This document shows, piece after piece, positions 1 through 12,963 of a stretch of DNA of 12,963 nucleotides. Source of the stretch: a virus (taxonomy: Duplodnaviria > Heunggongvirae > Uroviricota > Caudoviricetes); the IMG/VR virus record IMGVR_UViG_2541047825_000010, positions 1-12,963 of that record, one strand, 5' to 3'. A program made the position numbers and the translations under genes. The notes below the pieces were generated by a model, which was given only the letters and a program-made list of their open reading frames with translations, was not told where the DNA came from and did not search any database. Positions within the stretch are counted from its first letter, which is position 1. The number at the start of each line of letters is the position of its first letter.

Positions 1-1377
1 TCATACGTCAGCCCCTTGTGCATATCGTCTGCCACGCGCAGCAGGTGCATTTGATGCTGTGCAAATCTGTCTGGCTTCATCCTGGTCACATGCAACAAAG
101 TGTCCGTTGCAGAACCGCTGGTAAACCGTACCAAGTGAGCCAAAACGGTTTTTCGTCACAATGATTTCAGCAAATGGCGCGGCGCTACTGTTCTCGTCAT
201 ATACAGCTTCCCGATAGAGCATGATGATTGAGTCTGCGTCCTGTTCAATGCTTCCTGAATCACGCAAATCTGCGTTTGTCGGGCGTTTGTTTGGTCGCTT
301 CTCAACATCGCGCGAAAGCTGACTCAGGGAGATAACAGGCGTTTTCAGGTCTTTCGCCATCGCCTTCAGGCTTCCGGAGATGTGAGCAATTGCGAGGTCG
401 TTGCGATCTGCTTTCGGCTTCTCAATCAGGCCAAGATAATCCACCATGATGAGTGACAGGTTTGGATTTTCCTGTTTGTGCCGTTCTGCGATTGAGCGTA
501 TTTCTTCGACCGATAACCGCGAGGCATCGACTACCCATACATCCAAATCTGCAAGCTGACTCATGCCGTTAGCAACGCGCGCCCAGCCTTCGTCATCCAT
601 CGATGCAGGATTTCGCAGCACACTAACCGACATCCTCCCGGCGTTGGCAATACTTCGCTCTGCAATCTGCAATGCGCTCATTTCCATTGAGAAAATCAAC
701 ACTCCGCGCCGGACGTCAGAACCAGGAATAACGCGGCTTGCAACGCCTTCGGCAATCTTCAGCGCCAGTTCGGTTTTACCCATACCAGGACGAGCGGCGA
801 TAATCACCAGGTCTTCTGCGTTCATCCCTCCGGTGATGGCGTCAAGTTCGTCGATTCCGGTCTTCAGGGTATCTGACTCTTCTCCGTTCCTCAGACGCCT
901 GTCAAGCGTGTCAGTGTAGTCAGTGATGATTTCCCCTAACCGTACCGGTTTAACCTCGTCACGGGGCTTTCTGATGGCTGAAAGACGCTTTACAAGTTCA
1001 TCCATCGCCTGACTCGATGCGTCGATGGTTCCGCTCTGAATTGGTTCACGCATTTCATCCATGATTTCCAGCACCAGACGGCGGTGATAGTTATCCGCGA
1101 CCATTCCGGCATATCCCTTCAGGTTTGCGGCACTCGGGCAGTTTTTGCTGGTCATCAGGATTGACGTGAAATGCTCCTCTCCGCACGCCTCGGCAACCAT
1201 CAGCGCGTCGATTAAATTTCTGTTTCGCGCCTGCTTGCGGATAACCTCGAAGGCTTTCCGGTAGAGCGGAATTGAAAACGCTTCCGGCTCCAGCGTTGCC
1301 AGAACGTCGCTGGCGGTTGGAGTTAATCCACCAATCAGCAGGCCACCGATAACGCTCGCTTCGATATCCTGTCTCAT
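1..1377 (-). CDS. Replicative DNA helicase, DnaB family (phage P22 gene 12-type), 458 aa
   Basis: Full-length 458-aa ORF. Walker A P-loop [14 protein letters not shown] plus DnaB-like motifs [28 protein letters not shown]. Start ATG overlaps the stop of the upstream O-like gene (ATGA, 1374-1377). Stop codon is at window positions 1-3. Confidence 0.9.
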
Positions 1378-2321
1378 GCAATCCCCCTGTCTGCAAACTT
1401 CCCTTCCCGTACTCCCGTTAACGAATCTTCCCTCAACAGGTAATCAAAATCAGCCGTCCAGCCCGTGTCGTTGTCTCCGAAGTAAAACGGCTTGGCCTGA
1501 TGCACAAACGCCCTGACATACGCTCTGAAACCGTCCACGTTTGGCGTTTTCAGTTGCGGGATGATTTTCTTCAGGCGGCGTTTGCGTTTCTCGTTGACTG
1601 CAACAGCATGTGGAAGTCTGTCACCGACTTCGGTGTTGTAGGCGTTCAGGAAGGATTCGTAGTCGATTCGTTCTGCCTTGCGACGTTCAGGTTTAACCTG
1701 CCCATCGCCGCCCCCATTGGGGGGTAGGGGGGTATTATTTATATTCTTGTTAATACCTTCTTGTTCATGATGTGCGGTTGTTTGTGCGGCTTCATGTGCG
1801 CTTTCATGTGCGGAATGTGCGCTGAAAGCTGCGCCATTACTGGCTTCGTCATGTGCGGCATCATGTGCGGTTGTTTGTGCGGCATCATGTGCGGGTAAAT
1901 TGTCCATTTTTTGAGCATATTCATGGTAATTTGTGATGGTGATCACACGACCTTTTTGCTTCTCTCCATCAATGGAGATCATCCCTTCTTTCACAAAAAC
2001 CTGAAGCATCCGCTCAACCTGATCACGGCTTGCTGGCTTGCCATGTCTGTCGCATAACTGAAGACCTAAATCAGCTGCTGTCACAACCAGTTGACCGGGT
2101 TGCAGATGCCATTCATGACCTTTGAAATTCGCTTTGTATGGCTTTCTGGCGGCATTCAGGAGAAGGTTTTCCCACAGGGTGCGAAGATAAACATCTTTCG
2201 CCCATGACTGTTTCAGAATGCTCCGGTACAACGGAATGTAACCAGTTTTCTGGTTCTCCATCCTGTTGCTCCTGCGCTCGTGTGCGGCGCTGAAATCGTA
2301 GATTTTTGCTGTATTGCTCAT
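1374..2321 (-). CDS. Replication initiator, lambda O / P22 gene 18-like, 315 aa
   Basis: N-terminus [10 protein letters not shown] resembles lambda O (MTNTAKILNF, recalled). Lies between cII and the helicase as in lambdoid replication modules. Its central part is encoded by iteron repeats, giving a His/Ala-rich linker ([18 protein letters not shown]...). Confidence 0.85.
1765..1895. repeat. Candidate origin of replication: iterons inside the O-like gene, next to an AT-rich tract (1731-1764)
   Basis: About seven direct copies of a CATGTGCGG-type motif. The longer unit ATGTGCGGTTGTTTGTGCGGC occurs twice (about 1770 and 1870). The AT-rich block follows in the gene's reading direction, as in lambda ori. 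Confidence 0.6.
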
Positions 2322-2323
2322 AA

Positions 2324-2596
2324 CTACCTGCCTTGACGAAAGACCTTAAGAACATCGTTAAACTGACTTACGGATATGTCTTCTTTGAGAAGCTTTTCCA
2401 GAAATGCGTTTGGAATGAACGTATATCCCTCCTCTTTTGGTAGAGACGGGAGCAACGCCCTCGCCTCAGCCTTCAGAAGCTCAGTTCTGGCAACTTTCAC
2501 AAAAGAGATTTGAGTTCTTTCATCAATGGAACGAAGGAAGCGCAAACGCTTAGCTTCTTTGTGTGTATCAGGTGGATTAAAGCCTTTGTTTCGCAT
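2324..2596 (-). CDS. Hypothetical protein, 90 aa, between cII and the O-like gene
   Basis: Internal ATG at 2594-2596 preceded by a GAGG Shine-Dalgarno. The longer 193-aa track ORF would overlap cII, so the short start is preferred. No motif recognised. Confidence 0.5.
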   Translation of the reverse strand: MRNKGFNPPDTHKEAKRLRFLRSIDERTQISFVKVARTELLKAEARALLPSLPKEEGYTFIPNAFLEKLLKEDISVSQFNDVLKVFRQGR

Positions 2597-2601
2597 ATAA
2601 T
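2573..2601 (+). promoter_or_regulatory. Candidate Po promoter for the oop-like RNA
   Basis: -10 TATAAT at 2596-2601 with a weak -35 TGGATT at 2573-2578 (17-bp spacer), facing the cII 3' end. Confidence 0.4.
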
Positions 2602-2607
2602 TACCTC

Positions 2608-2672
2608 GTTGGATGTTGTTAAAATTCCATTTGTATTTGATCAGAACGCTCGGTTGCCGCCGGGCGTTTTTT
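2608..2672 (+). ncRNA. oop: oop-like antisense RNA overlapping the 3' end of cII
   Basis: 3' portion CAGAACGCTCGGTTGCCGCCGGGCGTTTTTTATT matches the lambda oop 3' end as recalled. Ends in a terminator (stem 2647-2653 / 2660-2666, T-run 2667-2672) lying inside the cII coding 3' end on the opposite strand. 5' end is estimated from the promoter. Confidence 0.55.
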
Positions 2673-2912
2673 ATTGGTGAGAATCGAAGCAACTTGTCGT
2701 GCCAATCGAGCCATGTCGTCGTCAACGACGCCCCATTCAAGAACAGCAAGCAGCATTGAGAACTTTGGAATCCAGTCCCTCTTCCACCTGCTGATCTGCG
2801 ACTTATCAACTCCCACAGCTTCCGCTGTCTTCTCAGTTCCAAGCATTGCGATTTTGTTAAGCAACGCACTCTCGATTCGTAGAGCCTCGTTGCGTTTGTT
2901 TGCACGAACCAT
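2619..2912 (-). CDS. cII: Transcriptional activator CII, 97 aa
   Basis: MVRANKRNEALRIESALLNKIAMLGTEKTAEAVGVDKSQISRWKRDWIPKF... is near-identical to lambda CII as recalled. Upstream context TAAGGAAATACTTACATATG matches lambda. The track ORF start at 2999 is an in-frame upstream extension. Confidence 0.92.
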   Translation of the reverse strand: MVRANKRNEALRIESALLNKIAMLGTEKTAEAVGVDKSQISRWKRDWIPKFSMLLAVLEWGVVDDDMARLARQVASILTNKKRPAATERSDQIQMEF

Positions 2913-2925
2913 ATGTAAGTATTTC
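2890..2925 (+). promoter_or_regulatory. pRE-type CII-activated promoter
   Basis: TTGC-N6-TTGC at 2890-2903 (TTGCGTTTGTTTGC) spanning the cII start, as in lambda pRE. Directed toward cro and c2. Confidence 0.5.
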
Positions 2926-2970
2926 CTTAACAAATAAGGAGTTATGCGCATCAACTTATGCGCGTTGTAT

Positions 2971-3013
2971 TCCCGCATTTCGGCGGGAATGAGGACCATG
3001 ACTGTTAAAGAGC
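2971..3013 (-). promoter_or_regulatory. nutR (boxA + boxB hairpin) between cro and cII
   Basis: On the minus strand: boxA GCTCTTTAACA and boxB TCCCGCCGAAATGCGGGA. Both are identical to the nutL copies at 4104-4144. Confidence 0.6.
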
Positions 3014-3020
3014 AATTTGC

Positions 3021-3206
3021 TTATGCCGCTTTGCGGTAAGCGCTTTCTTGATACTTCAGGGCGCCAGCTGTAACGACTTCCAGTCGATAGGCGTCTTTCT
3101 CTGGGATGACTTCCTTCCACTGAGAGACTGCTGCGTCGCTAATGCCTAACGCTTTAGCTACAGCACGCTGGGTTCCGAAGTGGTCGATAACATCTTTCTT
3201 GTACAT
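3021..3206 (-). CDS. cro: Cro repressor, P22 type, 61 aa
   Basis: MYKKDVIDHFGTQRAVAKALGISDAAVSQWKEVIPEKDAYRLE... is near-identical to P22 Cro as recalled. Divergent from c2 across the operator region. Confidence 0.92.
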   Translation of the reverse strand: MYKKDVIDHFGTQRAVAKALGISDAAVSQWKEVIPEKDAYRLEVVTAGALKYQESAYRKAA

Positions 3207-3220
3207 AGACTCGCTCCGAA

Positions 3221-3286
3221 ATTAAAGAACACTTAAATTATCCACTAAAGGAATCTTAAGTCAAGTTTATTTAAGATGTCTTAACT
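3221..3286. promoter_or_regulatory. OR1-OR3 operators with divergent PR (toward cro) and PRM (toward c2)
   Basis: Three 18-bp pseudo-palindromes of P22 type: ATTAAAGAACACTTAAAT (3221-3238), ACTAAAGGAATCTTAAGT (3244-3261), ATTTAAGATGTCTTAACT (3269-3286). Minus-strand PR: -35 TTGACT (3259-3264), 17-bp spacer, -10 ATAATT (3236-3241). c2 has no Shine-Dalgarno and may be leaderless. Confidence 0.7.
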
Positions 3287-3937
3287 ATGAAAACTCAATT
3301 GATGGGAGAGCGCATTCGCGCTCGGAGAAAAGAACTCAAGATCAGGCAGGCCGCACTTGGAAAGATGGTCGGCGTGTCTAATGTTGCCATATCTCAGTGG
3401 GAACGCTCTGAGACAGAGCCAAATGGAGAGAATCTTCTCGCCCTGGCTAATGCGTTGAAGTGTTCCCCTGACTATCTGATGAAAGGAGAGGAAAGTCTTT
3501 CAAACATTGCCTATCACAGTAGGCATGATCCAAGAGGGTCATACCCTCTGATTAGCTGGGTGAGCGCAGGATGCTGGATGGAAGCTGTAGAACCATATCA
3601 TAAGCGTGCAATAGATAACTGGTACGATACAACCGTAGACTGTTCAGAAGATTCGTTTTGGTTGGACGTGAAGGGAGACTCAATGACGGCTCCGGCCGGT
3701 CTCAGTATCCCTGAAGGAATGATAATACTCGTCGATCCTGAAGTAGAGCCGCGTAACGGGAAACTGGTAGTTGCAAAGCTCGAAGGAGAAAACGAGGCAA
3801 CTTTCAAGAAGTTAGTTATTGATGCAGGCAGGAAGTTTCTAAAACCACTTAACCCACAATATCCGATGATCGAGATCAACGGAAACTGCAAAATCATCGG
3901 CGTAGTTGTCGATGCAAAACTAGCAAACCTTCCATAA
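3287..3937 (+). CDS. c2: Prophage repressor C2 (CI-type, HTH plus LexA-like S24 autopeptidase domain), 216 aa
   Basis: Near-identical to P22 C2 as recalled (MxTQLMGERIRARRKxLKIRQAALGKMVGVSNVAISQWERSETEPNGENLL..., C-terminal GDSM...KL). Confidence 0.93.
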   Translation: MKTQLMGERIRARRKELKIRQAALGKMVGVSNVAISQWERSETEPNGENLLALANALKCSPDYLMKGEESLSNIAYHSRHDPRGSYPLISWVSAGCWMEAVEPYHKRAIDNWYDTTVDCSEDSFWLDVKGDSMTAPAGLSIPEGMIILVDPEVEPRNGKLVVAKLEGENEATFKKLVIDAGRKFLKPLNPQYPMIEINGNCKIIGVVVDAKLANLP

Positions 3938-3960
3938 GGGGGCATTCGCCCCTTTTTTTT
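3938..3960 (+). terminator. Rho-independent terminator after c2
   Basis: GGGGC-ATTC-GCCCC hairpin followed by eight T. Confidence 0.7.
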
Positions 3961-4002
3961 ATTTCCTTTAAAAATCAAAGCCAAACTTAAGTTACGAAAG
4001 AA

Positions 4003-4064
4003 AATTTAAGTTTTCTTCAAAAATACTCTTGACCATTAATTAAAGAGATCTTAAATTTAAGCCA
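4003..4064 (+). promoter_or_regulatory. OL operators and PL promoter
   Basis: Operator-like 18-mers ATTTAAGTTTTCTTCAAA (4004-4021) and ATTAAAGAGATCTTAAAT (4039-4056). -35 TTGACC (4029-4034), 17-bp spacer, -10 TAAATT (4052-4057), with the operator overlapping the promoter. Confidence 0.55.
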
Positions 4065-4103
4065 TCAGCAGGACGCTGGAAGCCAAACGGAACAGATTGG
4101 CAG

Positions 4104-4144
4104 GCTCTTTAACATTGATGGGATTGTCCCGCCGAAATGCGGGA
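4104..4144 (+). promoter_or_regulatory. nutL (boxA GCTCTTTAACA, boxB hairpin TCCCGC-CGAAAT-GCGGGA)
   Basis: Identical boxA and boxB to the minus-strand copy after cro. Lies in the PL leader upstream of N. Confidence 0.6.
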
Positions 4145-4160
4145 ACCAAAGAGTAGTTGG

Positions 4161-4232
4161 CTTTGGGGTGACGTGAAGTGCAGCTGCACGACGGCAACCG
4201 GAAGATAAGCACCCGGCGCGTCACCGCCAAAG
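4161..4232 (+). promoter_or_regulatory. Long-range stem-loop in the N leader
   Basis: CTTTGGGGTGACG (4161-4173) pairs with CGTCACCGCCAAAG (4219-4232). Encloses a perfect 12-bp palindrome GTGCAGCTGCAC (4178-4189). Lies 20 nt upstream of the N start. Confidence 0.4.
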
Positions 4233-4251
4233 TCAATCATCGGAGGTCAAC

Positions 4252-4551
4252 ATGACAGTAGTCATTACATATCTGGCTGACGATAACGCCAGAAATCGCC
4301 GCAGAGCACGCAGACAGGCTCAACGTGAACAGGCAATGCAAGAGCAGCGACTGGCGCGAAAAATTGCGCTAAAGCTCTCTGGTTGCGTCAGGGCAGATAA
4401 AGCAGCATCACTCGGAAGCCTTCGCTGCAAGAAGGCAGAAGAAGTCGAGCGTAAACAGAACCGTATTTACTACCGCAAGCCACGCAGTGAAATGGGTGTG
4501 ACTTGTGTTGGTCGCCAGAAAATGAAATTAGGCAGCAAACCACTTATTTGA
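4252..4551 (+). CDS. N: Antitermination protein N (P22 gene 24 equivalent), 99 aa
   Basis: N-terminal arginine-rich motif NARNRRRARRQAQREQ. C-terminus ...NRIYYRKPRSEMGVTCVGRQKMKLGSKPLI resembles the lambda N C-terminus as recalled. First gene after PL and nutL. Shine-Dalgarno GGAGG. Confidence 0.85.
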   Translation: MTVVITYLADDNARNRRRARRQAQREQAMQEQRLARKIALKLSGCVRADKAASLGSLRCKKAEEVERKQNRIYYRKPRSEMGVTCVGRQKMKLGSKPLI

Positions 4552-4559
4552 GGTGAGAT

Positions 4560-5030
4560 ATGACAAAATCATGGAGCGTACCTTTTCCTGAATCAGAAAC
4601 TGAACATGATGGAATGCCTGTTTTCTGGAGATTCCAGGCGACAGTTGAAGAAGATGGAATCAAAATATTCGCACTTCAATATATAGCTTTTCATCAGACA
4701 GAGCATTATGCATGGTTGGTTCCTGCGCATTGGATTATTGATTTTAAACCAGCACCAAATCAGTGGTTACGGGAATGGAAACAAAGGAGAAATAGATATG
4801 CAATTAAGAAAGTAGCAAAAAATGCAGAAAGATCTTTTGCATTCCCAACGAAGAAACTTGCCATTGAAAGTTTATTGCGCCGGAAGAAATACCATTTAAT
4901 GAGAATCAAACAAGATTTGGCTGTTGTATCAACTCTTGTTGATGGGATGAAGAATATTGATACATCAACACCAGATATTGAATATAACTTTGGACACAAC
5001 CAAGAAACAGAAAATTGGGTATTCTACTAG
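4560..5030 (+). CDS. Hypothetical protein, 156 aa, AT-rich moron
   Basis: ATG 8 nt after the N stop with Shine-Dalgarno AGGTGAG. G+C is lower than neighbours by eye. No predicted transmembrane segment and no recognised motif. Confidence 0.7.
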   Translation: MTKSWSVPFPESETEHDGMPVFWRFQATVEEDGIKIFALQYIAFHQTEHYAWLVPAHWIIDFKPAPNQWLREWKQRRNRYAIKKVAKNAERSFAFPTKKLAIESLLRRKKYHLMRIKQDLAVVSTLVDGMKNIDTSTPDIEYNFGHNQETENWVFY

Positions 5031-5054
5031 GCCGCATAGTCGGCCTTTATTTTT
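5029..5054 (+). terminator. Rho-independent terminator after the 156-aa ORF
   Basis: AGGCCG-CATAGT-CGGCCT hairpin followed by TTATTTTT. Confidence 0.6.
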
Positions 5055-5076
5055 GGCATAAACAACAGAGGTGAAT

Positions 5077-5211
5077 ATGAACGCAGTTGAATTTACAAAA
5101 TGGATGGCAGAGCAAGATATCACAGGAGCCGACGAAAAGGCTGTGTACTACATGGCTCTGCTATGGATTCACAAAGCAAAAGAGGCTGCAAATGCTCTTG
5201 GAGGTGAGTAA
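5077..5211 (+). CDS. Hypothetical small protein, 44 aa (MNAVEFTKWMAEQDITGADEKAVYYMALLWIHKAKEAANALGGE)
   Basis: Not in the ORF track (below 60 aa). Shine-Dalgarno AGAGGTGA 3-10 nt upstream of the ATG. Stop overlaps the next ORF's start (TAATG). Confidence 0.4.
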   Translation: MNAVEFTKWMAEQDITGADEKAVYYMALLWIHKAKEAANALGGE

Positions 5212-5399
5212 TGAAAGTAAAAATAACTGCTTCTAATACCAGTTTTGTTAGTGTTGGTGATATTACAGAAGTAATAACAAACCATGATGGAACACAAGTT
5301 ATGTGGTCTGATTTTTGTAAAAGATATGAGCGAGTCACTTGGTGTAAACTCGTATGGGGCGTCGAATACGAAGAATTACCTGAAATGCATGACGAATAA
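5211..5399 (+). CDS. Hypothetical protein, 62 aa
   Basis: Translationally coupled to the 44-aa ORF. Occupies the ral/sieB-type interval but has no recognised similarity. Confidence 0.5.
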   Translation: MKVKITASNTSFVSVGDITEVITNHDGTQVMWSDFCKRYERVTWCKLVWGVEYEELPEMHDE

Positions 5400-5494
5400 G
5401 CACTGTGTATTCATTCCAACGAGTGAATACACGGAGCAATGTCGCTCGTAACTAAACAGGAGCCGACTTGTTCTGATTATTGGAAATCTTCTTT

Positions 5495-5520
5495 GCCCTC
5501 CAGTGTGAGGGCCTTTTTAT
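5495..5520 (+). terminator. Rho-independent terminator upstream of cIII
   Basis: GCCCTC-CAGTGT-GAGGGC hairpin followed by CTTTTTAT. Confidence 0.55.
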
Positions 5521-5584
5521 ATGCATACCAATAACGCTTCACTCGAGGCGTTTTCGTTATGCAATCAAACAGAAGGAGCATCCT

Positions 5585-5755
5585 ATGCAACAGTTCGCTA
5601 TTGCAGGGGCGGCATCGGTTCGCCCTTTCAACCCGATTTTATCGGTACAGCATTCACGAAAAAATATTTTAACCGGAGCAGACTTTAAACAACCAAGAAT
5701 GAAAAGTTTGCTCGAAAAGCTTTGGGATATTTTGAAACAACAAGGCCGTCCATGA
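5585..5755 (+). CDS. cIII: CIII (FtsH inhibitor that stabilises CII), 56 aa
   Basis: MQQFAIAG... and the central ...MKSLLEKLWDILKQQG resemble lambda CIII (MQYAIAG...WKRLIDILNQPG, recalled). Shine-Dalgarno AAGGAG. The track ORF start at 5480 lies inside the upstream terminator and was rejected. Confidence 0.8.
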   Translation: MQQFAIAGAASVRPFNPILSVQHSRKNILTGADFKQPRMKSLLEKLWDILKQQGRP

Positions 5756-5922
5756 GTTTTATAGATAACTGGTCAGACGAAGAATTCATTCGTCAGATGA
5801 AAGAATTAATCGGTAACGAAGGAGATATTCATGTCACTTGCAACCACCGTGAAGGAGAGCAAGTTACAGAGACGCATGTACACGCGGCAGGCGTTAATGT
5901 ATCGCCAGAAGGGAGATCGTGA
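5752..5922 (+). CDS. Hypothetical protein, 56 aa, in the Kil position
   Basis: ATG overlaps the cIII stop (ATGA). Lambda kil likewise overlaps the cIII end. No sequence similarity recognised, so the Kil role is positional only. Confidence 0.45.
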   Translation: MSFIDNWSDEEFIRQMKELIGNEGDIHVTCNHREGEQVTETHVHAAGVNVSPEGRS

Positions 5923-6011
5923 AGGTGTTCGCGTCTTTTTAAATGCGGCAAAGACTGAAGTATTAAATCAGCGTTATTTCCTTGGGCCATGTCCATTCTG
6001 AGAACAATCAT

Positions 6012-6617
6012 ATGAGCAAAGAATTTTACGCAAGACTGGCAGCTATTCAGGAGAATCTGAACGCGCCAAAGAATCAGTACAACTCATTCGGCAAATATAA
6101 ATACAGAAGCTGCGAAGACATTCTTGAAGGCGTTAAGCCGTTACTGAATGGCCTGTTTTTATCAATCAGCGATGAAGTTGTGTTGATTGGTGATCGGTAT
6201 TACGTGAAAGCCACGGCAACTATTACCGATGGCGAAAACAGTCATACAGCAACCGCTCTTGCACGAGAGGAAGAAAGCAAGAAAGGAATGGATTCTGCAC
6301 AAGTTACTGGAGCTACAAGCTCTTATGCACGCAAGTATTGCCTCAATGGTTTATTCGGCATTGATGATGCGAAAGATGCAGATACCGACGAGCATAAACA
6401 TCAGCAGAACGCAGCAGCAAAGCAATCAAAACCATCACCTACACCTGAACAGGTTCTAAAAGCATTCACTGACGCAGCAATGCAGAAAAACACCGTAGAA
6501 GAGCTTAAACAGGCGTTCGCCAAAGCGTGGAAGATGCTCGAAGGCACACCGGAGCAGCACAAAGCGCAGGACGTTTACAACATCAGACGAGACGAATTAG
6601 AAGGAGCGGCTGCTTAA
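6012..6617 (+). CDS. erf: Erf, essential recombination function (single-strand annealing protein), 201 aa
   Basis: MSKEFYARLAAIQENLNAPKNQYNSFGKYKYRSCEDILEGVKPLL... closely matches P22 Erf as recalled. First ATG in frame; the track start at 5982 is a TTG. Confidence 0.9.
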   Translation: MSKEFYARLAAIQENLNAPKNQYNSFGKYKYRSCEDILEGVKPLLNGLFLSISDEVVLIGDRYYVKATATITDGENSHTATALAREEESKKGMDSAQVTGATSSYARKYCLNGLFGIDDAKDADTDEHKHQQNAAAKQSKPSPTPEQVLKAFTDAAMQKNTVEELKQAFAKAWKMLEGTPEQHKAQDVYNIRRDELEGAAA

Positions 6618-7000
6618 TGGCACATTCGATTACAGTAAGACTAAACAAACCCGCAAGAGAGTTTCAGGCCGGGGAAAATATCGGATTCAACATCCGTGCT
6701 GGCGTTCAGTATTACGATCGCCAGACAAAAAAGAAAGAATGGACAAACTACAGCGCCGTTGTATTTGCCAAGCCGGGAGCGCAAGCGGATTACTACCGTA
6801 GTGTTCTTGTTGAAGGTGGCATTGTGGAAATTACCGGAGAAAACATCAGGGTTGATGTTTATCAGGGGCAAAATGGTCAATCAATCACTCTTGAATTACT
6901 GAATGCAAAGATTGGATTTGCAGCTTCAGGAAACAGCCAACAGCAGCAAAGTAGCAATCATCAAAATCATCCTGAATACGACGATTCAATTCCATTCTAG
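6617..7000 (+). CDS. Compact SSB-like single-stranded DNA-binding protein, 127 aa
   Basis: C-terminal tip PEYDDSIPF resembles the conserved bacterial SSB tail DDDIPF, after a Q-rich linker and a short strand-rich N-terminal domain. Shine-Dalgarno AAGGAG. TAATG overlap with erf. Confidence 0.65.
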   Translation: MAHSITVRLNKPAREFQAGENIGFNIRAGVQYYDRQTKKKEWTNYSAVVFAKPGAQADYYRSVLVEGGIVEITGENIRVDVYQGQNGQSITLELLNAKIGFAASGNSQQQQSSNHQNHPEYDDSIPF

Positions 7001-7023
7001 ATTAGCAAAATAAGGATTCCATT

Positions 7024-7317
7024 ATGCCAGCGCCTCTGTATGGTGCGGATGACCCGCGCCGCTGTTCCGGCAATTCCGTATCGGAGGTGCTGGATAAATT
7101 CAGGAAAAACTACAACCGGATAATGTCGATACCGCAGGAAACGAAAGAGGAAAAGGAATTTCGCCATTGTATATGGCTTGCAGAGAAAGAAGAACGCGAG
7201 CGAATTTACCAGACATCAATCCGACCATTCCGCAAAGCCACATATACCCACTTCCCTGAAATTGACCCGCGCCTGCGTAATTACCGCTCACGCTATGGCG
7301 CTATCAGTAATGACTGA
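7024..7317 (+). CDS. Hypothetical protein, 97 aa
   Basis: Shine-Dalgarno TAAGGA 7 nt upstream. Position after erf and the 97-aa length are compatible with P22 Abc2 (anti-RecBCD), but this rests on synteny and length only. Confidence 0.6.
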
Positions 7318-7327
7318 GGAATTTACC

Positions 7328-7492
7328 ATGAGAGGACTTGCATACAATCCCGGCATTCTTCCGGCAGAAATGATTATTCGCCAACGCGTAAAGCCAATGC
7401 CATCGAGAGAGGAATTGCTTAAGAGAAATTCTTTTCCATCAGTGAATCAAAACAAATATCTGAATGCGATGTGGCGGAGTGGGAAAAAATGA
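7328..7492 (+). CDS. Hypothetical protein, 54 aa
   Basis: Shine-Dalgarno GAGGA 7 nt upstream. Stop overlaps the next start. Confidence 0.45.
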
Positions 7493-7926
7493 AACAAATG
7501 TCACTAATTGAGATGGATGGTTTTCTGAAAGGTAAATGCATCCCACGAGATTTAAAGGTTAACGAAACAAACGCTGAATATCTGGTGCGTAAATTTGCTG
7601 AAGCGGAGGCCAAGTGCGCGGCGCTGGCTGCTGAAGTTGAGGCTGTGAAATCAGCACATCAAGATGCTGTAAACACCATCATGTATACCGCCAATCGAAC
7701 GGGTGTTTTATACACAGAGAAGGCAATTCAAATGTCCTGCAAAACCCCGGCCACCGATGCTTTCCTGACTGAAGTCCGGGCTAAGGCGTTTGATGACCTT
7801 TGCGCGGCGTTCGTTAAGCACGCGTCGGTGTCCGGGCTGGACGATGGCGACTGCGTTACGGTGAAAGAGGCGACTGACGCCCTGCTGCATTGTGCGGAAC
7901 AGCTTCACAAGGGAGTGCATTCATGA
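7489..7926 (+). CDS. Hypothetical protein, 145 aa
   Basis: ATGA overlap with the upstream ORF. Shine-Dalgarno GGAG. Ala/Glu-rich predicted helical segment. No family recognised. Confidence 0.6.
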
Positions 7927-8156
7927 GCAACCTACTACCATGTCCATTCTGTGGCGGTGCAGCGCACGTTGCCAGCGAAGCAGATCACCCTGAATATGGC
8001 TCTGGCGGTCGATTCTATTTCGTTCGATGCGGTACGTGTCGCGCTCAATCTGGTAGCAAATATGCAGCGCCTGGAAATGACTGCGCGATTTTTTATTCAG
8101 AGGTTAGAGCAGAGTGGAATCAGCGAGCAAAGGAGGCAACCAGTGAGCAAGATTGA
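7923..8156 (+). CDS. Lar-family-like zinc-ribbon protein (restriction alleviation), 77 aa
   Basis: N-terminal LLPCPFCGG...C..C zinc-ribbon signature typical of the Lar family as recalled. ATGA overlap with the upstream gene. Confidence 0.6.
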   Translation: MSNLLPCPFCGGAAHVASEADHPEYGSGGRFYFVRCGTCRAQSGSKYAAPGNDCAIFYSEVRAEWNQRAKEATSEQD

Positions 8157-8550
8157 CTATCAGGCACTGCGTGAAGCGGCAGAGAAAGCCGGTGAAGATA
8201 AGTGGCAGGCTAAAAAAATAAATGGTGATTTTTTCGTTATTCGTCACGGTAGTTATACAAGACAGCATGGCTACACATCGTATCAACCCATTGCGGAGAT
8301 TGATTGTAAGCCAGTCCGGGATTTTGTTGCCAAGGCTAATCCGGCTACCGTGCTGGAATTACTGGATGAACTGGAAGCAGCAAAAAAGCGCATTGCAGAA
8401 CTGGAAGCGCGGGAAATATCGCTCCCGGAACGTAGCAGCATGCTTCATCGAACAGATTTTCACGATGATTACCAAACGGTAATGGCATACAAAGTTTCTG
8501 AAGTCATCGATGCAATCCGCGCTACTGGCATTCGCATCAAAGGAGAGTGA
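8143..8550 (+). CDS. Ead/Ea22-like protein, 135 aa
   Basis: GTG start 6 nt after a strong AGGAGG. KIDYQALREAAEKAGED and NPATVLELLDELEAAKKRIAELEA resemble Ea22-family motifs as recalled. Overlaps the Lar-like gene by 14 nt. Confidence 0.6.
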   Translation: MSKIDYQALREAAEKAGEDKWQAKKINGDFFVIRHGSYTRQHGYTSYQPIAEIDCKPVRDFVAKANPATVLELLDELEAAKKRIAELEAREISLPERSSMLHRTDFHDDYQTVMAYKVSEVIDAIRATGIRIKGE

Positions 8551-8551
8551 T

Positions 8552-8839
8552 ATGGCAACTTTGCAGGAATTAATCGACCTGACGCCAGAACAGGAAAAAG
8601 CGTGGAATCGCCTTGTGAAGGCTGTAAAGGATTTCAGGGCAGCCGGAGGAAAGTTTTATAGCGTCCTGGACACGCTGAGCGCATACAACGGCGAGCACGT
8701 TGCCAGCATTGATAACGATAAGGGCTACCACACTGCAAGCGTCTATATGCCTAGCATTGATGCGCCAGGGCTAACCAGTTGGGCTGATGATTGGCACGGC
8801 ATCACGCTGAAAGATGGCGTTGAAGTGGATGAGGACTAA
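8552..8839 (+). CDS. Hypothetical protein, 95 aa
   Basis: Shine-Dalgarno AGGAGAG. ATG 1 nt after the upstream stop. Confidence 0.6.
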   Translation: MATLQELIDLTPEQEKAWNRLVKAVKDFRAAGGKFYSVLDTLSAYNGEHVASIDNDKGYHTASVYMPSIDAPGLTSWADDWHGITLKDGVEVDED

Positions 8840-8842
8840 CAC

Positions 8843-9529
8843 ATGACTACTTTTACCGACAAAGAACTGATTAAAGAAATCAGAGAGCGAATCGGCAGCC
8901 TGGACGTGCGAGACAATATTGAGCGCCTGGCTTATGAAATCGCACTGGCATCGCTGGCAGCAGTATCGGATGAACGAGCAGCCTATGAATTATTTATGGA
9001 GAAGCGTTTCGGGGAATCTGTAGATCGCCGTAGGGCAAAAAATGGCGATAGAGAATACATGGCATGGGATATGGCGCTTGGCTGGATTATCTGGTGTCAC
9101 CGCGCCGCCATGCTTCAGGGTAGCCAACCTGTAAGCCAAACTTACAACTTGCCAGAATTAATCGAAGGCATGGAAGTTTCCATTGATGTAAGCACTTGTG
9201 ATGCTGATTTAGGTAATCGCTATTTCGGCACCGTCACCGAGGCGTTAGAACTTGATACAGCCAAGAATGGTTACATCCTCCTGGTTCAGGACGCAGAGCC
9301 AAACTTCGATGTAAATGGCAACTATCCGGTAATTCCGGATGGTTGGATAAGCTGTAGTGAGCGAATGCCCCCTCAAGATGATTGGATTTTAATTTATTCA
9401 AAGCACGGCGAGTATATGGCAGGACAGGTGCAAGGGGAATACGTGGAGTTGAGCGACGGCACTTTATCGTGGTTAGGGAACGTCTTGTTCTGGATGACGT
9501 TGCCAGAACCTCCGAAGGGGGCGAAATGA
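8843..9529 (+). CDS. DUF551-like phage protein, 228 aa
   Basis: C-terminal DGWISCSERMPPQDDWILIY...WMTLPEPP resembles the DUF551 signature as recalled. Shine-Dalgarno GAGGA. Confidence 0.7.
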   Translation: MTTFTDKELIKEIRERIGSLDVRDNIERLAYEIALASLAAVSDERAAYELFMEKRFGESVDRRRAKNGDREYMAWDMALGWIIWCHRAAMLQGSQPVSQTYNLPELIEGMEVSIDVSTCDADLGNRYFGTVTEALELDTAKNGYILLVQDAEPNFDVNGNYPVIPDGWISCSERMPPQDDWILIYSKHGEYMAGQVQGEYVELSDGTLSWLGNVLFWMTLPEPPKGAK

Positions 9530-9786
9530 TGGATGTAAAAGAGAAGGTTTTGCAGGTGATGCGTTCCCGGGCTGCCCTGCAAGATAAAGCTCTCGGCGGG
9601 GAATATCCATTCACGATAGCAACCTGGAATCTGCGGTTGGCAATGGAGAAGGAATTTCCTGATGAAGAATGGCGTTCGGCAGATTTGCGCAAAATTCTTA
9701 TGGAGCTGGCTAAAGACGGAACAGTATCCAAAGATACCCATGCCAGCCGGATTGGTCAGGCGGTATGGAGACTGGAGGTGAGGTAA
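9526..9786 (+). CDS. Hypothetical protein, 86 aa
   Basis: ATGA overlap with the upstream stop. Shine-Dalgarno AAGGGGG. Confidence 0.6.
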   Translation: MMDVKEKVLQVMRSRAALQDKALGGEYPFTIATWNLRLAMEKEFPDEEWRSADLRKILMELAKDGTVSKDTHASRIGQAVWRLEVR

Positions 9787-10070
9787 TGGCTAACCTGCAA
9801 CTTGCCGTTAAAGGTGAATACTTCGATGCCATGATTCGCGGGGAGAAAACGGAAGAGTATCGCCTGTGTAATGACTACTGGAATAAGCGCCTCGTTAACC
9901 GTAAGTATGACCGCCTGATTATCACAAAGGGATATCCGAAGCGCGACGATTCCAGCCGCAGAATTGACGTCCCGTATGACGGATATGAAATCAAGACAAT
10001 CACACATCCCCACTTCGGCGATAAACCGGTAAAGGTGTTCGCGATAAAGGTGAATATCGGCAATGAATAA
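9786..10070 (+). CDS. ASCH-like small beta-barrel protein, 94 aa
   Basis: LAVKGEYFDAMIRGEKTEEYR fits the ASCH pattern (YF..I..G.KT.E.R) as recalled. TAATG coupling. Shine-Dalgarno GGAGGTGAGG. Confidence 0.55.
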   Translation: MANLQLAVKGEYFDAMIRGEKTEEYRLCNDYWNKRLVNRKYDRLIITKGYPKRDDSSRRIDVPYDGYEIKTITHPHFGDKPVKVFAIKVNIGNE

Positions 10071-10104
10071 CAATCCTCGAACTCGCGGGGATTTCTTTTA
10101 TCTG

Positions 10105-10130
10105 AACTCGCTACGGCGGGTTTTGTTTTA
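10105..10130 (+). terminator. Rho-independent terminator closing the coupled operon
   Basis: AACTCGC-TACG-GCGGGTT hairpin followed by TTGTTTTA. A degenerate upstream copy sits at 10078-10100. Confidence 0.45.
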
Positions 10131-10141
10131 TGGAGATGATT

Positions 10142-10441
10142 ATGGCCTGTTCAACATTCAACCATCTAACGTTACAGAAATACCAGCCAGACCCTGAAGA
10201 TTTATGCTCACTGTGTGGCGGAAATCATGGTAAAGCCGCCATGATCGAATGTAAGGACAAAATCCACATTTGCCTTAATTGCGTTGATGTCCTCGTTGAT
10301 ATCAAAAATGAGAGAGAAGATAAAAAGCGTAGCGAGGCTATTCGCGCATTAGATTCATGGATGCGAGATGGGTATAGTGCTGCGCAAATTTATGACTTCG
10401 CAATATCAAAAGGCGAAATACCAGGAGTGCGCATCGAATAA
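10142..10441 (+). CDS. Hypothetical Cys-rich (CxxC...CxxC) protein, 99 aa
   Basis: Three in-frame ATGs (10130, 10136, 10142). 10142 is chosen for the GGAGA Shine-Dalgarno 5 nt upstream. Cysteine pairs CSLCGG and CLNC. Confidence 0.55.
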   Translation: MACSTFNHLTLQKYQPDPEDLCSLCGGNHGKAAMIECKDKIHICLNCVDVLVDIKNEREDKKRSEAIRALDSWMRDGYSAAQIYDFAISKGEIPGVRIE

Positions 10442-10483
10442 GACGTAACCAATATTCGAATTGAAGAACTGAAAGAACACCAA

Positions 10484-10506
10484 GCCGCCTGATGGCGGTT
10501 TTTTAT
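10484..10506 (+). terminator. Rho-independent terminator
   Basis: CCGCC-TGAT-GGCGG hairpin followed by TTTTTTATT. Confidence 0.6.
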
Positions 10507-10518
10507 TGGAGACAAGAA

Positions 10519-10863
10519 ATGTCAGATTTGGCTATGAAGATTTTGAAATGGCAAACGACTGGCGATGTTGGCATCAGTAGCGCAACTCTTGCCTCAATCG
10601 CATGTGGACTGAAAAAGAATATCTATGGTCATCACTTCGGCGCTCCACATGACGCAGCAGATTTCCGACGATGCGTTGCACTTGTTGAGCAGATTCCAGA
10701 AGTCAGAGATTCATTCGACAAGGTTGCAAAGCGTGTTCCGGCATTCAAAGGCATTCTCAACGAATGGGATTCCCTCGTTGCTCTGTTGAAGTCTGAAATG
10801 AAGATACACGGAAACAAAGCACCAGAGACTTACAGAAGAATTAGCGAGTTACGCAAGGATTAA
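10519..10863 (+). CDS. Hypothetical protein, 114 aa
   Basis: Shine-Dalgarno GGAGA 6 nt upstream. The gene sits between the terminator at 10484-10506 and the two downstream terminators. No family recognised. Confidence 0.6.
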   Translation: MSDLAMKILKWQTTGDVGISSATLASIACGLKKNIYGHHFGAPHDAADFRRCVALVEQIPEVRDSFDKVAKRVPAFKGILNEWDSLVALLKSEMKIHGNKAPETYRRISELRKD

Positions 10864-10868
10864 CCACA

Positions 10869-10945
10869 GCCTCACACTCGATGAGGCCTGTTCATTTCTC
10901 AAGATATCCAGACCTACCATCGCCGCATCAATGCGGTTTTTTATT
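10869..10945 (+). terminator. Two tandem terminator hairpins
   Basis: GCCTCA-CACTCGA-TGAGGC (10869-10887, weak T-run) and CCGCA-TCAA-TGCGG followed by TTTTTTATT (10923-10945). Confidence 0.55.
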
Positions 10946-10952
10946 ACCTGAT

Positions 10953-10968
10953 TTGCAGGTTCGATTCC
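10953..10968 (+). other. tRNA 3'-half fragment: T-arm portion TTGCAGGTTCGATTCC (att-associated)
   Basis: 16-nt match to the T-stem and T-loop of a tRNA (argW-type tRNA-Arg as recalled). Similarity stops right after GATTCC. Confidence 0.4.
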
Positions 10969-10987
10969 CTATTCGGAGATAGCACTC

Positions 10988-11188
10988 ATGCAACACGAAC
11001 TACAGCCTGATTCACTGGTTGATTTGAAATTCATCATGGCCGATACTGGCTTTGGTAAAACCTTCATCTACGACCGGATTAAGTCCGGCGACCTGCCAAA
11101 AGCCAAAGTTATCCACGGGCGAGCAAGATGGTTATATCGTGACCATTGTGAATTCAAAAATAAGCTCTTAAGCCGCGCCAATGGGTAA
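10988..11188 (+). CDS. AlpA/Xis-like excisionase-type DNA-binding protein, 66 aa
   Basis: LVDLKFIMADTGFGKTFIYDRIKSGDLPKAKVIHGRARW fits the AlpA-family HTH pattern as recalled. Shine-Dalgarno GGAGA. Lies next to the att-like tRNA fragments. Confidence 0.65.
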   Translation: MQHELQPDSLVDLKFIMADTGFGKTFIYDRIKSGDLPKAKVIHGRARWLYRDHCEFKNKLLSRANG

Positions 11189-11261
11189 AATAGCGGGTAA
11201 AATATTTCTCACATCTAAAAAACACCATTCTAATCAATCCCCTGCCGCGTCAAGTAGATGT

Positions 11262-11276
11262 CTGCAGGGGACACCA
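11262..11276 (+). other. tRNA 3'-end fragment CTGCAGGGGACACCA (acceptor 3' strand plus CCA; att-associated)
   Basis: Matches the 3' terminus of the same tRNA. No corresponding 5' half anywhere in the window. Confidence 0.45.
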
Positions 11277-11662
11277 GATACCCTTCAAACGATATCTACC
11301 TTCACCCCGTAAAAGATAAGTTTGGCAGCACATTTGCCCTATCTACTCATTTTTCCTGCAACAGGTTGAAATCTCAACACGGTCAGAAAACGCTGATGAC
11401 TAAACAGCCCTGGGCTGGGCGATGTAACCATCACACACAATCCTGATCGCGAAATATGGCGTGACTTGATACTTCACTCCACAATGCTTTCCTTGATGAA
11501 TTCGCAGGCCCGTGATACACGGGACAGGTCGCTGAATTACGACAATGCCCTGGAAATCAGCGAGCCGTGTATCCGGAGTACATTTGAGCGACTGTACCAG
11601 AACATGAATGAGGCGTTTGGATTAGGCGATTATTAGCAGGGCTAAGCATTTTGGTATTATTA

Positions 11663-11706
11663 TTTTCCGGTTGAGGGATATAGAGCTATCGACAACAACC
11701 GGAAAA
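11663..11706. terminator. Inverted repeat, candidate bidirectional terminator at the cscB 3' end
   Basis: TTTTCCGGTTG (11663-11673) and CAACCGGAAAA (11696-11706) with a 22-nt loop and AT-rich flanks. Lies between convergent reading frames. Confidence 0.4.
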
Positions 11707-11715
11707 AGTTTACGT

Positions 11716-12963
11716 TTATATTGCTGAAGGTACTGGCGTTTCCATCACTATTTGCTCACGTTTTTTACTCAGGAAGAAAATGCCAAATAGCAACATCAGG
11801 CAGACAATACCCGAAATTGCGAAAAAAACCGTCTGGTAGCCTGCGTGGTCAAAGAGTATCCCAGTCGGCGTTGAAAGCAGCACAATCCCCAACGAACTGG
11901 CAATTTGAAAACCAATCAGAAAGATCGTCGACGACAGGCGCTTATCAAAATTTGCCACGCTGTATTTGAAGACGGATATGACACAAAGTGGAACCTCAAT
12001 GGCATGTAACAGCTTCACTAATGAAATAATCCAGGGGTTAACGAATAGCGCGCAGGAAAGGATACGCAACGCCATAATCACAACACCGATAAGTAATGCA
12101 TTTTTTGGCCCTACCCGATTCACAAAGAAAGGAATAATCGCCATGCACAGCGCTTCGAGTACCACCTGGAATGAGTTGAGATAACCATACAGGCGCGTTC
12201 CTACATCGTGGGATTCGAATAAACCTGCATAAAAGACAGGAAAGAGTTGTTGATCAAAAATGTTATAGAAAGACCACGTCCCCACAATAAATATGACGAA
12301 AACCCAGAAGTTTCGATCCTTGAAAACTGCGATAAAATCCTCTTTTTTTACCCCTCCCACATCCGCCGCTACGCACTGGTGTTCCTGCTCTTTAAAACGC
12401 ATGTTGATCATCATAAATACAGCGCCAAATAGAGAGACCAACCAGAAGTTGATATGGGGACTGATACTAAAAAATATGCCAGCAAAGAATGCGCCAATAG
12501 CATAGCCAAAAGATCCCCAGGCGCGCGCTGTTCCATATTCGAAATGAAAATTTCGCGCCATTTTTTCGGTGAAGCTGTCAAGCAAACCGCATCCCGCCAG
12601 ATACCCCAGACCAAAAAAGAGCGCCCCCAGAATTAAACCTACAGAAAAATTGCTTTGCAGTAACGGTTCATAAACGTAAATCATAAACGGTCCGGTCAAG
12701 ACCAAGATGAAACTCATACACCAGATGAGCGGTTTCTTCAGACCGAGTTTATCCTGAACGATGCCGTAGAACATCATAAATAGAATGCTGGTAAACTGGT
12801 TGACCGAATAAAGTGTACCTAATTCCGTCCCTGTCAACCCTAGATGTCCTTTCAGCCAAATAGCGTATAATGACCACCACAGCGACCAGGAAATAAAAAA
12901 GAGAAATGAGTAACTGGATGCAAAACGATAGTACGCATTTCTGAATGGAATATTCAGTGCCAT
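11716..12963 (-). CDS. cscB: Sucrose:H+ symporter, LacY-family MFS (CscB-like), 415 aa
   Basis: Twelve-helix hydrophobic profile. Clear LacY-like blocks (DKLGLKK, GPFMIYVYEPLLQ, EYGTARAWGSFGYAIG, PKNALLIG). N-terminus MALNIPFRNAYYRF matches CscB as recalled. Start codon is at the window edge. Confidence 0.85.
   Translation of the reverse strand: MALNIPFRNAYYRFASSYSFLFFISWSLWWSLYAIWLKGHLGLTGTELGTLYSVNQFTSILFMMFYGIVQDKLGLKKPLIWCMSFILVLTGPFMIYVYEPLLQSNFSVGLILGALFFGLGYLAGCGLLDSFTEKMARNFHFEYGTARAWGSFGYAIGAFFAGIFFSISPHINFWLVSLFGAVFMMINMRFKEQEHQCVAADVGGVKKEDFIAVFKDRNFWVFVIFIVGTWSFYNIFDQQLFPVFYAGLFESHDVGTRLYGYLNSFQVVLEALCMAIIPFFVNRVGPKNALLIGVVIMALRILSCALFVNPWIISLVKLLHAIEVPLCVISVFKYSVANFDKRLSSTIFLIGFQIASSLGIVLLSTPTGILFDHAGYQTVFFAISGIVCLMLLFGIFFLSKKREQIVMETPVPSAI

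Follow-up and report, generated by a model that had tools for sequence, protein, structure and literature searches.

The window, by which we mean the whole stretch of 12,963 nucleotides that was analyzed (positions 1 to 12,963 of IMG/VR record IMGVR_UViG_2541047825_000010), is identified from its sequence as a CUS-3/P22-like (Lederbergvirus) prophage of E. coli. On its minus strand lie a lambda-type cII gene (2619-2912; PF05269, E = 5e-48), a 90-aa open reading frame (ORF90, 2324-2596), a gene for an O-type replication initiator of 315 aa (1374-2321; PF04492 Phage_rep_O, E = 3e-15; PHROG 345, E = 1e-99) and, as the third gene of the replication module, a gene for a DnaB-like replicative helicase of 458 aa (1-1377; DnaB_C, E = 1e-78). 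The initial annotation had placed a 90-aa ORF between cII and an O-like gene, and its coordinates and the PF05269 and Phage_rep_O matches of the two neighbors bear this out. ORF90 consists of 90 sense codons followed by TAG, with the ATG at 2596-2594, 22 nt from the end of cII, and the stop codon at 2326-2324. The GAGG Shine-Dalgarno (SD) sequence that had been noticed is present on the minus strand at 2607-2604, with a 7-nt spacer to the ATG. At the other end the stop codon lies 2 nt before the initiator start, as had also been described (TAG 2326-2324, TT, ATG 2321; junction TAG-TT-ATG, 2319-2326, minus strand), and an AGG-type SD for O sits in the final ORF90 codons (CAA GGC AGG). The SD motif ACGAGGTnAATTATATG was kept in 6 divergent loci and in 77 near-identical loci, and the junction CAAGGCAGGTAGnnATGAGCAATACAGC in all E. 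coli/Salmonella-type loci. This conservation supports the earlier suggestion that ORF90 is likely translated and coupled to the expression of the replication genes.

There are 96 ORFs of at least 40 aa in the window, and thus a length of 90 aa is by itself within chance. The coding reality of ORF90 is instead settled by its homologs, since frame and length are conserved at 41-80% identity. In codon alignments of six loci, pairwise dN/dS ranged from 0.01 to 0.17 with a mean of 0.09, dN being 0.06-0.22 and dS saturated (>1), while the two shifted frames, used as a control, gave 1.35 and 1.97. Variable columns at codon positions 1, 2 and 3 numbered 25, 24 and 70, respectively. The upstream cII gene was under looser constraint, with dN/dS of 0.08-0.56 against the ORF90 mean of 0.09. 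By these measures ORF90 is a genuine protein-coding gene under strong purifying selection, neither a chance ORF nor a decaying remnant, and the unusual strength of the constraint is one of the modest new points of this analysis. The initial annotation had made its case depend on conservation in related prophages, and it is there that the gene was found to be kept under this selection. A longer in-frame version beginning with GTG appeared in the ORF list (2324-2905, 193 aa) and was rejected: the extension is not conserved, and locus L003 has an in-frame TAG four codons before the ATG, which shows that the 90-aa form is the gene. The opening codons (ATG CGA AAC AAA) are near-invariant, silent sites included, which the predicted oop promoter that overlaps them would explain. 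The encoded protein has a mass of 10.5 kDa and a pI of about 10, its N-terminal two thirds being basic and its C-terminal third mildly acidic.

An oop-type antisense RNA is predicted on the plus strand at 2608-2675, with the 5′ end inferred by homology with lambda oop. It spans the final ~18 codons of cII and ends just before the ORF90 SD, and its terminator hairpin (2643-2670, plus strand) is identical to that of lambda. The candidate -10 element is a perfect TATAAT (2596-2601, plus strand) that overlaps the ORF90 start codon; the -35 element is weak (TGGATT), and a consensus scan called no promoter there. An Rfam scan of the whole window at E-values up to 0.1 gave no match, so that oop lacks covariance-model support, and the predicted assignment rests on homology with lambda and P22 and on position. 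In lambda the oop -10 (CATAAT) overlaps the start of O in the way that the TATAAT of the window overlaps the start of ORF90, and in P22 an oop promoter and terminator are annotated in the same place, with the -10 overlapping the start of orf48. Near-identity between the window and lambda holds as far as the 3′ end of cII and is lost immediately past the stop codon of that gene. An allele of the terminator loop was observed in L025, L071, L083, L086 and other loci, which carry GGCGGCAAC where the window has GGTGTGCAAGAC (2650-2662); the stem survives this 3-nt indel, but the cII C-terminus reads RPVCKTERS in place of RPAATERS. A search for TTGCN6TTGC found a single site, TTGCGTTTGTTTGC at 2890-2903 on the plus strand, located in the 5′ end of cII and pointing leftward, and none in ORF90; this site is expected to be a cII-activated pRE-type promoter.

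Lambda was said to have no gene between cII and O, and both its annotation and a published study (PMC3349717; Hayes et al. 2012) agree. The description of the ORF as extra or inserted holds in so far as lambda has no counterpart; it is lambda-centered, as P22 and many other lambdoid phages fill the slot. Among lambdoid phages the slot is empty in lambda, occupied by orf48/DUF2740 in P22 and many Stx phages, and occupied by ORF90 here. Hayes et al. describe a cII-oop-'orf'-O-P layout, of which lambda is naturally without the orf, and list orf48 (P22, HK022), the homologues hkaW and EC_CP1693_21, HK97 p43, and a gp53 homologue (orf54) (PMC3349717). ORF90 lies in exactly the position described there, although the CUS-3-type 90-aa family was not analyzed in that work. 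Studies of P22 place orf48 in the replication cassette with no role assigned (PMC8585504; bioRxiv 10.1101/2023.08.15.553423), and in the epsilon34 genome paper the replication gene region likewise takes in the gene that separates cII from the O homologue (PMC2629481). We found no functional study of DUF2740 or of a gene between cII and O in the literature.

The slot of P22 orf48 (DUF2740, PF10872; PHROG 1913) is identical to that of ORF90, after cII/c1 and oop, with the start codon inside the oop -10 and the stop codon at the initiator gene, which it overlaps in P22 (gene 18). The two genes differ in that the 48-aa product of orf48 lacks the IPN/O-like C-terminal core of ORF90. Similarity between them was weak: residues 8-27 of orf48, used as a single sequence, aligned with residues 7-26 of ORF90 (hhalign E = 3.6e-4), a comparison of the two family profiles gave an E-value of 0.0042 at a probability of 8%, and PHROG 1913 was weakly matched by 6 of 18 ORF90-family members (best E = 0.0024). 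PF10872 matched none of the 18 at E-values up to 1.

A homology search, which the initial annotation had called for, gave a full-length match to PHROG 2519 (E = 1.9e-57), with residues 1-90 of ORF90 on positions 1-90 of the 90-position profile. All 18 aligned relatives matched it as well; PHROG 2519 is the family of ORF90 itself and is catalogued as being of unknown function. Homologs, always 59-93 aa long and at 41-80% identity, are confined to prophages of Enterobacterales, from the genera Escherichia, Salmonella, Scandinavium, Pseudescherichia, Serratia, Cronobacter, Klebsiella, Providencia, Proteus and Xenorhabdus, and a scan of genome contigs for the family found 6 loci. A deep HMM search of 1.84 billion representatives returned 15 matches, none of which was a longer protein containing the ORF90 domain; the two large ones (1,975 and 2,536 aa) match no more than part of the profile, at positions 35-60 and 37-79. 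Of 5,426 complete E. coli genomes, 279 (~5%) carry ORF90, annotated by PGAP/RefSeq as a hypothetical protein. CUS-3, JEP4 and many Stx2a-converting phages encode the identical protein (100%), and among cultivable phages Kapi1 and Gally have a copy that is 99-100% identical. At full identity it was left unannotated in CP000711.1 (CUS-3, 31677-31946) and in the LC6160xx Stx2a phage series, and the gene is thus missed in several deposited annotations. NCBIfam gave no match to the ORF90 of the window. ORF90 is an ordinary member of a recognized, variable lambdoid slot, and it is already catalogued as a hypothetical protein.

Amino-acid conservation spans the whole of ORF90 and is strongest at residues 39-86. 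The C-terminal core of the family reads G[FY]xxIPNxF[LM][DE]xLLKxD[LF]SVxQFNx[VI]LxxF, and the short forms of Providencia, Proteus and Xenorhabdus consist of little beyond this core. An AF2 model built at first from 12 close sequences was poor (pLDDT 57.6) and was set aside; with a 38-sequence alignment the model was confident (pLDDT 85.7, pTM 0.64) and contained helices at 13-23, 26-51, 63-71 and 76-87 and a short hairpin at 54-59. The structure search proposed at the outset did not bring a relative, as Foldseek of this model found nothing significant in either PDB (best E = 1.4) or BFVD (best E = 0.5). Neither the ORF90-family profile nor the O-like protein matched any PDB entry by sequence.

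The single lead to a function came from comparison with the initiators themselves. Residues 55-88 of the window ORF90 align to positions 6-39 of the Pfam Phage_rep_O profile (PF04492) with 14.6 bits and an E-value of 0.048, below the cutoff of 28.7 bits, and over the same residues the family member P0009 scored 16.2 bits against TIGR01610 (phage_O_Nterm), below the cutoff of 45.5 bits. This TIGR01610 match probably explains the name 'replication protein' used by one source. Across the family, Phage_rep_O was matched by 16 of 18 members at E-values up to 1 (best E = 5.2e-5), and the O-like families PHROG 678 and PHROG 2365 were matched by 15 and 9 of the 18. When ORF90 was compared by hhalign with 11 O N-termini, its residues 32-88 fell on O residues 1-61 (E = 4e-4, probability 35%). 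In a shuffle control of the family HMM against 3,311 targets, the four best were all real N-termini of lambda-type O or P22 gp18, above all 3,300 shuffled decoys. ORF90 shares with the N-domain of lambda O and P22 gp18 the motif order G[YF]-x-x-[IL]-[PS]-N...L[ST]xxQF..[VL]L. We accept from these alignments that the core is probably remotely related to the first strand-helix-helix of the O domain, a homology that is weak but reproducible.

ORF90 has about one third of the O origin-binding domain (~95 positions), without the recognition helix or wing. Its membership in Phage_rep_O or TIGR01610 was rejected, as two thirds of the domain are absent, the scores are below the cutoffs and the iterons lie elsewhere. 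ORF90 is not an initiator. Recent tandem duplication from the adjacent O gene was also dropped, since the short form from Providencia could not be aligned by BLASTP with the O next to it. The same core was found paired with at least 4 different types of O N-domain, and its constancy across these types argues against specific mimicry of the cognate O.

The iterons, CATGTGCGG-type units at 12-nt spacing, form an array at 1764-1906 within the O-type gene, where they encode a His/Ala-rich linker; this array is likely the origin of replication. A repeat search found neither iterons nor notable repeats in ORF90 (2324-2596). The O-type gene has a second in-frame start, ATG 2261 (MENQK), behind a strong AGGAG, while the N-terminus read from ATG 2321 resembles MTNTAKILNF of lambda O. 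Two isoforms of O, with or without an N-terminal tag, are thus conceivable. Gene callers were divided between 2321 and 2261, and the 62-nt gaps between ORF90 and O in some gene calls arose because the callers took the internal MENQK start.

In every distinct locus examined, the O-type gene was directly downstream of the ORF90 homolog, with stop and start abutting or overlapping. The two genes share 4 nt in L015 (Serratia) and L016 (Cronobacter) and 8 nt in L017 (Klebsiella) and the Providencia loci L018, L021 and L022; in the Xenorhabdus loci L023 and L024, where O begins with TTG, the overlap is 14 nt. The gene after O varies, with a lambda-P-type loader in L009 and a primase-helicase in L018 taking the place of the DnaB-like helicase, and in Providencia and Xenorhabdus loci without cII (L018, L023) O still adjoins the ORF90 homolog. 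One Providencia alcalifaciens locus (L022, 831-3209) is a compact element with an integrase, an AlpA-like gene, a 62-aa ORF90 homolog and a truncated O of 178 aa (N-domain only), in which the overlap between homolog and O is kept; it could be a satellite-like element or a decayed prophage.

Co-inheritance was examined in a set of 77 IMG/VR loci whose ORF90 is 98-100% identical to that of the window. Ungapped homology extended at least 1,150 nt downstream, through O and into or through the helicase, in 74 of these near-identical loci. The upstream gene, readable in 71 loci, was a lambda-type cII in 50, a second, unrelated cII type in 20 and an HNH-type gene in 1. In this last locus (L086) an HNH/AP2-like gene of homing-endonuclease type replaces cII, and the oop terminator and ORF90 are retained. 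Upstream conservation of the near-identical loci ends at the 5′ edge of the oop terminator. A breakpoint 0-50 nt upstream of the ATG, indicated by the ungapped analysis, was partly produced by the 3-nt indel in the oop loop and was discarded in favor of the oop 5′ edge as the boundary. Accordingly, cII shares its inheritance with ORF90 only over its final ~18 codons, where oop overlaps it, and the C-terminus KKRPAATERSDQIxMDF is common to otherwise different cII proteins. The downstream homology in 74 of 77 loci, together with the swapped upstream genes, indicates that oop, ORF90, O and the helicase are a co-inherited unit. On this comparison ORF90 is the first cistron of the replication module and not a lysogeny gene, and it belongs with O, not with cII. 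This module membership, together with the likeness of the core to a detached start of the initiator DNA-binding domain, is new in a modest way.

A selected, O-linked gene, conserved coupling and partial O-like sequence together led us to infer that ORF90 may be a co-translated accessory of the O initiator, a reading that we favor tentatively and hold at rather low confidence. ORF90 would be transcribed from pR after cII and translated from its own GAGG SD, and through the abutting stop and start ORF90 and O would be made together. The small protein would then influence how the O-origin complex is assembled or turned over, or would act on something contacted by the O N-terminus. Because it lacks the DNA-reading part of the O domain, it should not bind iterons by itself. 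Since ORF90 stays the same whichever O type or helicase-loading strategy accompanies it, a constant feature would be the more likely target, for example the conserved extreme N-terminus of O (M-S/T-N-T/V-A...), or else a host factor. In lambda O this extreme N-terminus (TNTAKI) is the ClpX recognition motif. Against the accessory model, the similarity to O is short (~35 aa) and below every curated threshold, and lambda replicates without such a gene. A more specific version, which we regard as doubtful, is that ORF90 arose by domestication of a 5′ fragment from a lambda-type initiator gene and is now a separate co-translated mini-protein that would act in trans on initiation, for instance by capping or chaperoning O oligomers at the origin or by modulating ClpXP-dependent turnover of O.

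Somewhat unlikely, and the strongest of the competing explanations, is that ORF90 is an accessory gene unrelated to the initiator, serving host takeover, anti-defence or inter-phage competition, which sits at a recombination-permissive boundary and is merely co-inherited with O. Such a gene would fit the variable content of the slot among lambdoid phages (empty, orf48/DUF2740 or ORF90), a core sequence that does not track the O N-domain type, and the lack of any fold or family match to replication beyond the weak O-like motif. That motif is nevertheless reproducible, and adjacency to or overlap with O was found in every locus over a wide divergence, despite changes of cII and helicase. A defence-related role gained nothing from PADLOC, which gave no credible match for three members of the ORF90 family; JetB was hit by one at an E-value of 0.021, judged spurious, and the other two had none.

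A modulator of the lysis-lysogeny decision, working with cII and oop, for example by stabilizing cII or affecting its proteolysis, is improbable; the idea follows from the effect on lysogeny frequency that the initial annotation had raised as a check. The position of ORF90 immediately downstream of cII, a start codon that falls within the oop -10 and a pR transcript shared with cII all suit such a role, but identical ORF90 alleles stand behind unrelated cII bodies and are inherited with O and the helicase, and homologs persist in the cII-less loci L018 and L023. In addition, the phage already has a cIII-like peptide, encoded at 5480-5755 on the plus strand (MQQFAIAGAASV...SLLEKLWDILKQ), whose likeness to lambda cIII was judged by eye.

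We consider it still less probable that ORF90 is a cis-acting device, in which translation of the ORF brings ribosomes to the O start and accommodates the embedded oop promoter while the peptide itself is functionless. The location of the O SD inside the last ORF90 codons, at a conserved junction, and the first codons, which overlap the oop promoter region and hardly vary even at synonymous sites, are what such a device would show. Conservation, however, peaks at residues 39-86, far from both ends, dN/dS is ~0.09 (with saturated dS), and a further start of O, at 2261, has an independent SD of its own. Finally, it is very improbable that ORF90 is a non-functional relic, a 5′ piece of an earlier O gene that stayed behind when the replication module was exchanged. 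Its C-terminal third is indeed like the beginning of the O DNA-binding domain and breaks off at the point where that domain would go on, and the short forms begin with MSNV... like O proteins. A relic would be expected to drift, however, and what is seen is a dN/dS of ~0.09, a conserved length and a frame that stays open from E. coli to Xenorhabdus. An origin of ORF90 as a fragment is possible together with present-day selection on the gene.

Replication control of lambdoid phages is usually taught from lambda, which is without an ORF90-type gene. Many P22-like, Stx-converting and other prophages appear, from the conservation described above, to carry a selected small gene tied to the initiator by translational coupling. 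If ORF90 modulates the assembly or stability of the initiator, it would be a new component for a classic model system, and the domesticated fragment, if real, would represent a previously unrecognized regulatory layer in lambdoid replication that is absent from lambda. With an identical copy present in Stx2a-converting phages, ORF90 could also affect the induction and replication of these phages.

Elsewhere the window encodes a P22-Cro-type cro, a cI of 216 aa, an N-like gene, and Erf- and SSB-like genes. At the prophage end (10988-12963), torI, a KplE1-type excisionase gene, adjoins an oligosaccharide MFS transporter gene, which we read as a cscB-like sucrose permease gene; neither an integrase nor a tRNA gene lies in the window. 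This arrangement fits modules of the KplE1/CUS-3 type, in which intS is at the opposite prophage end.
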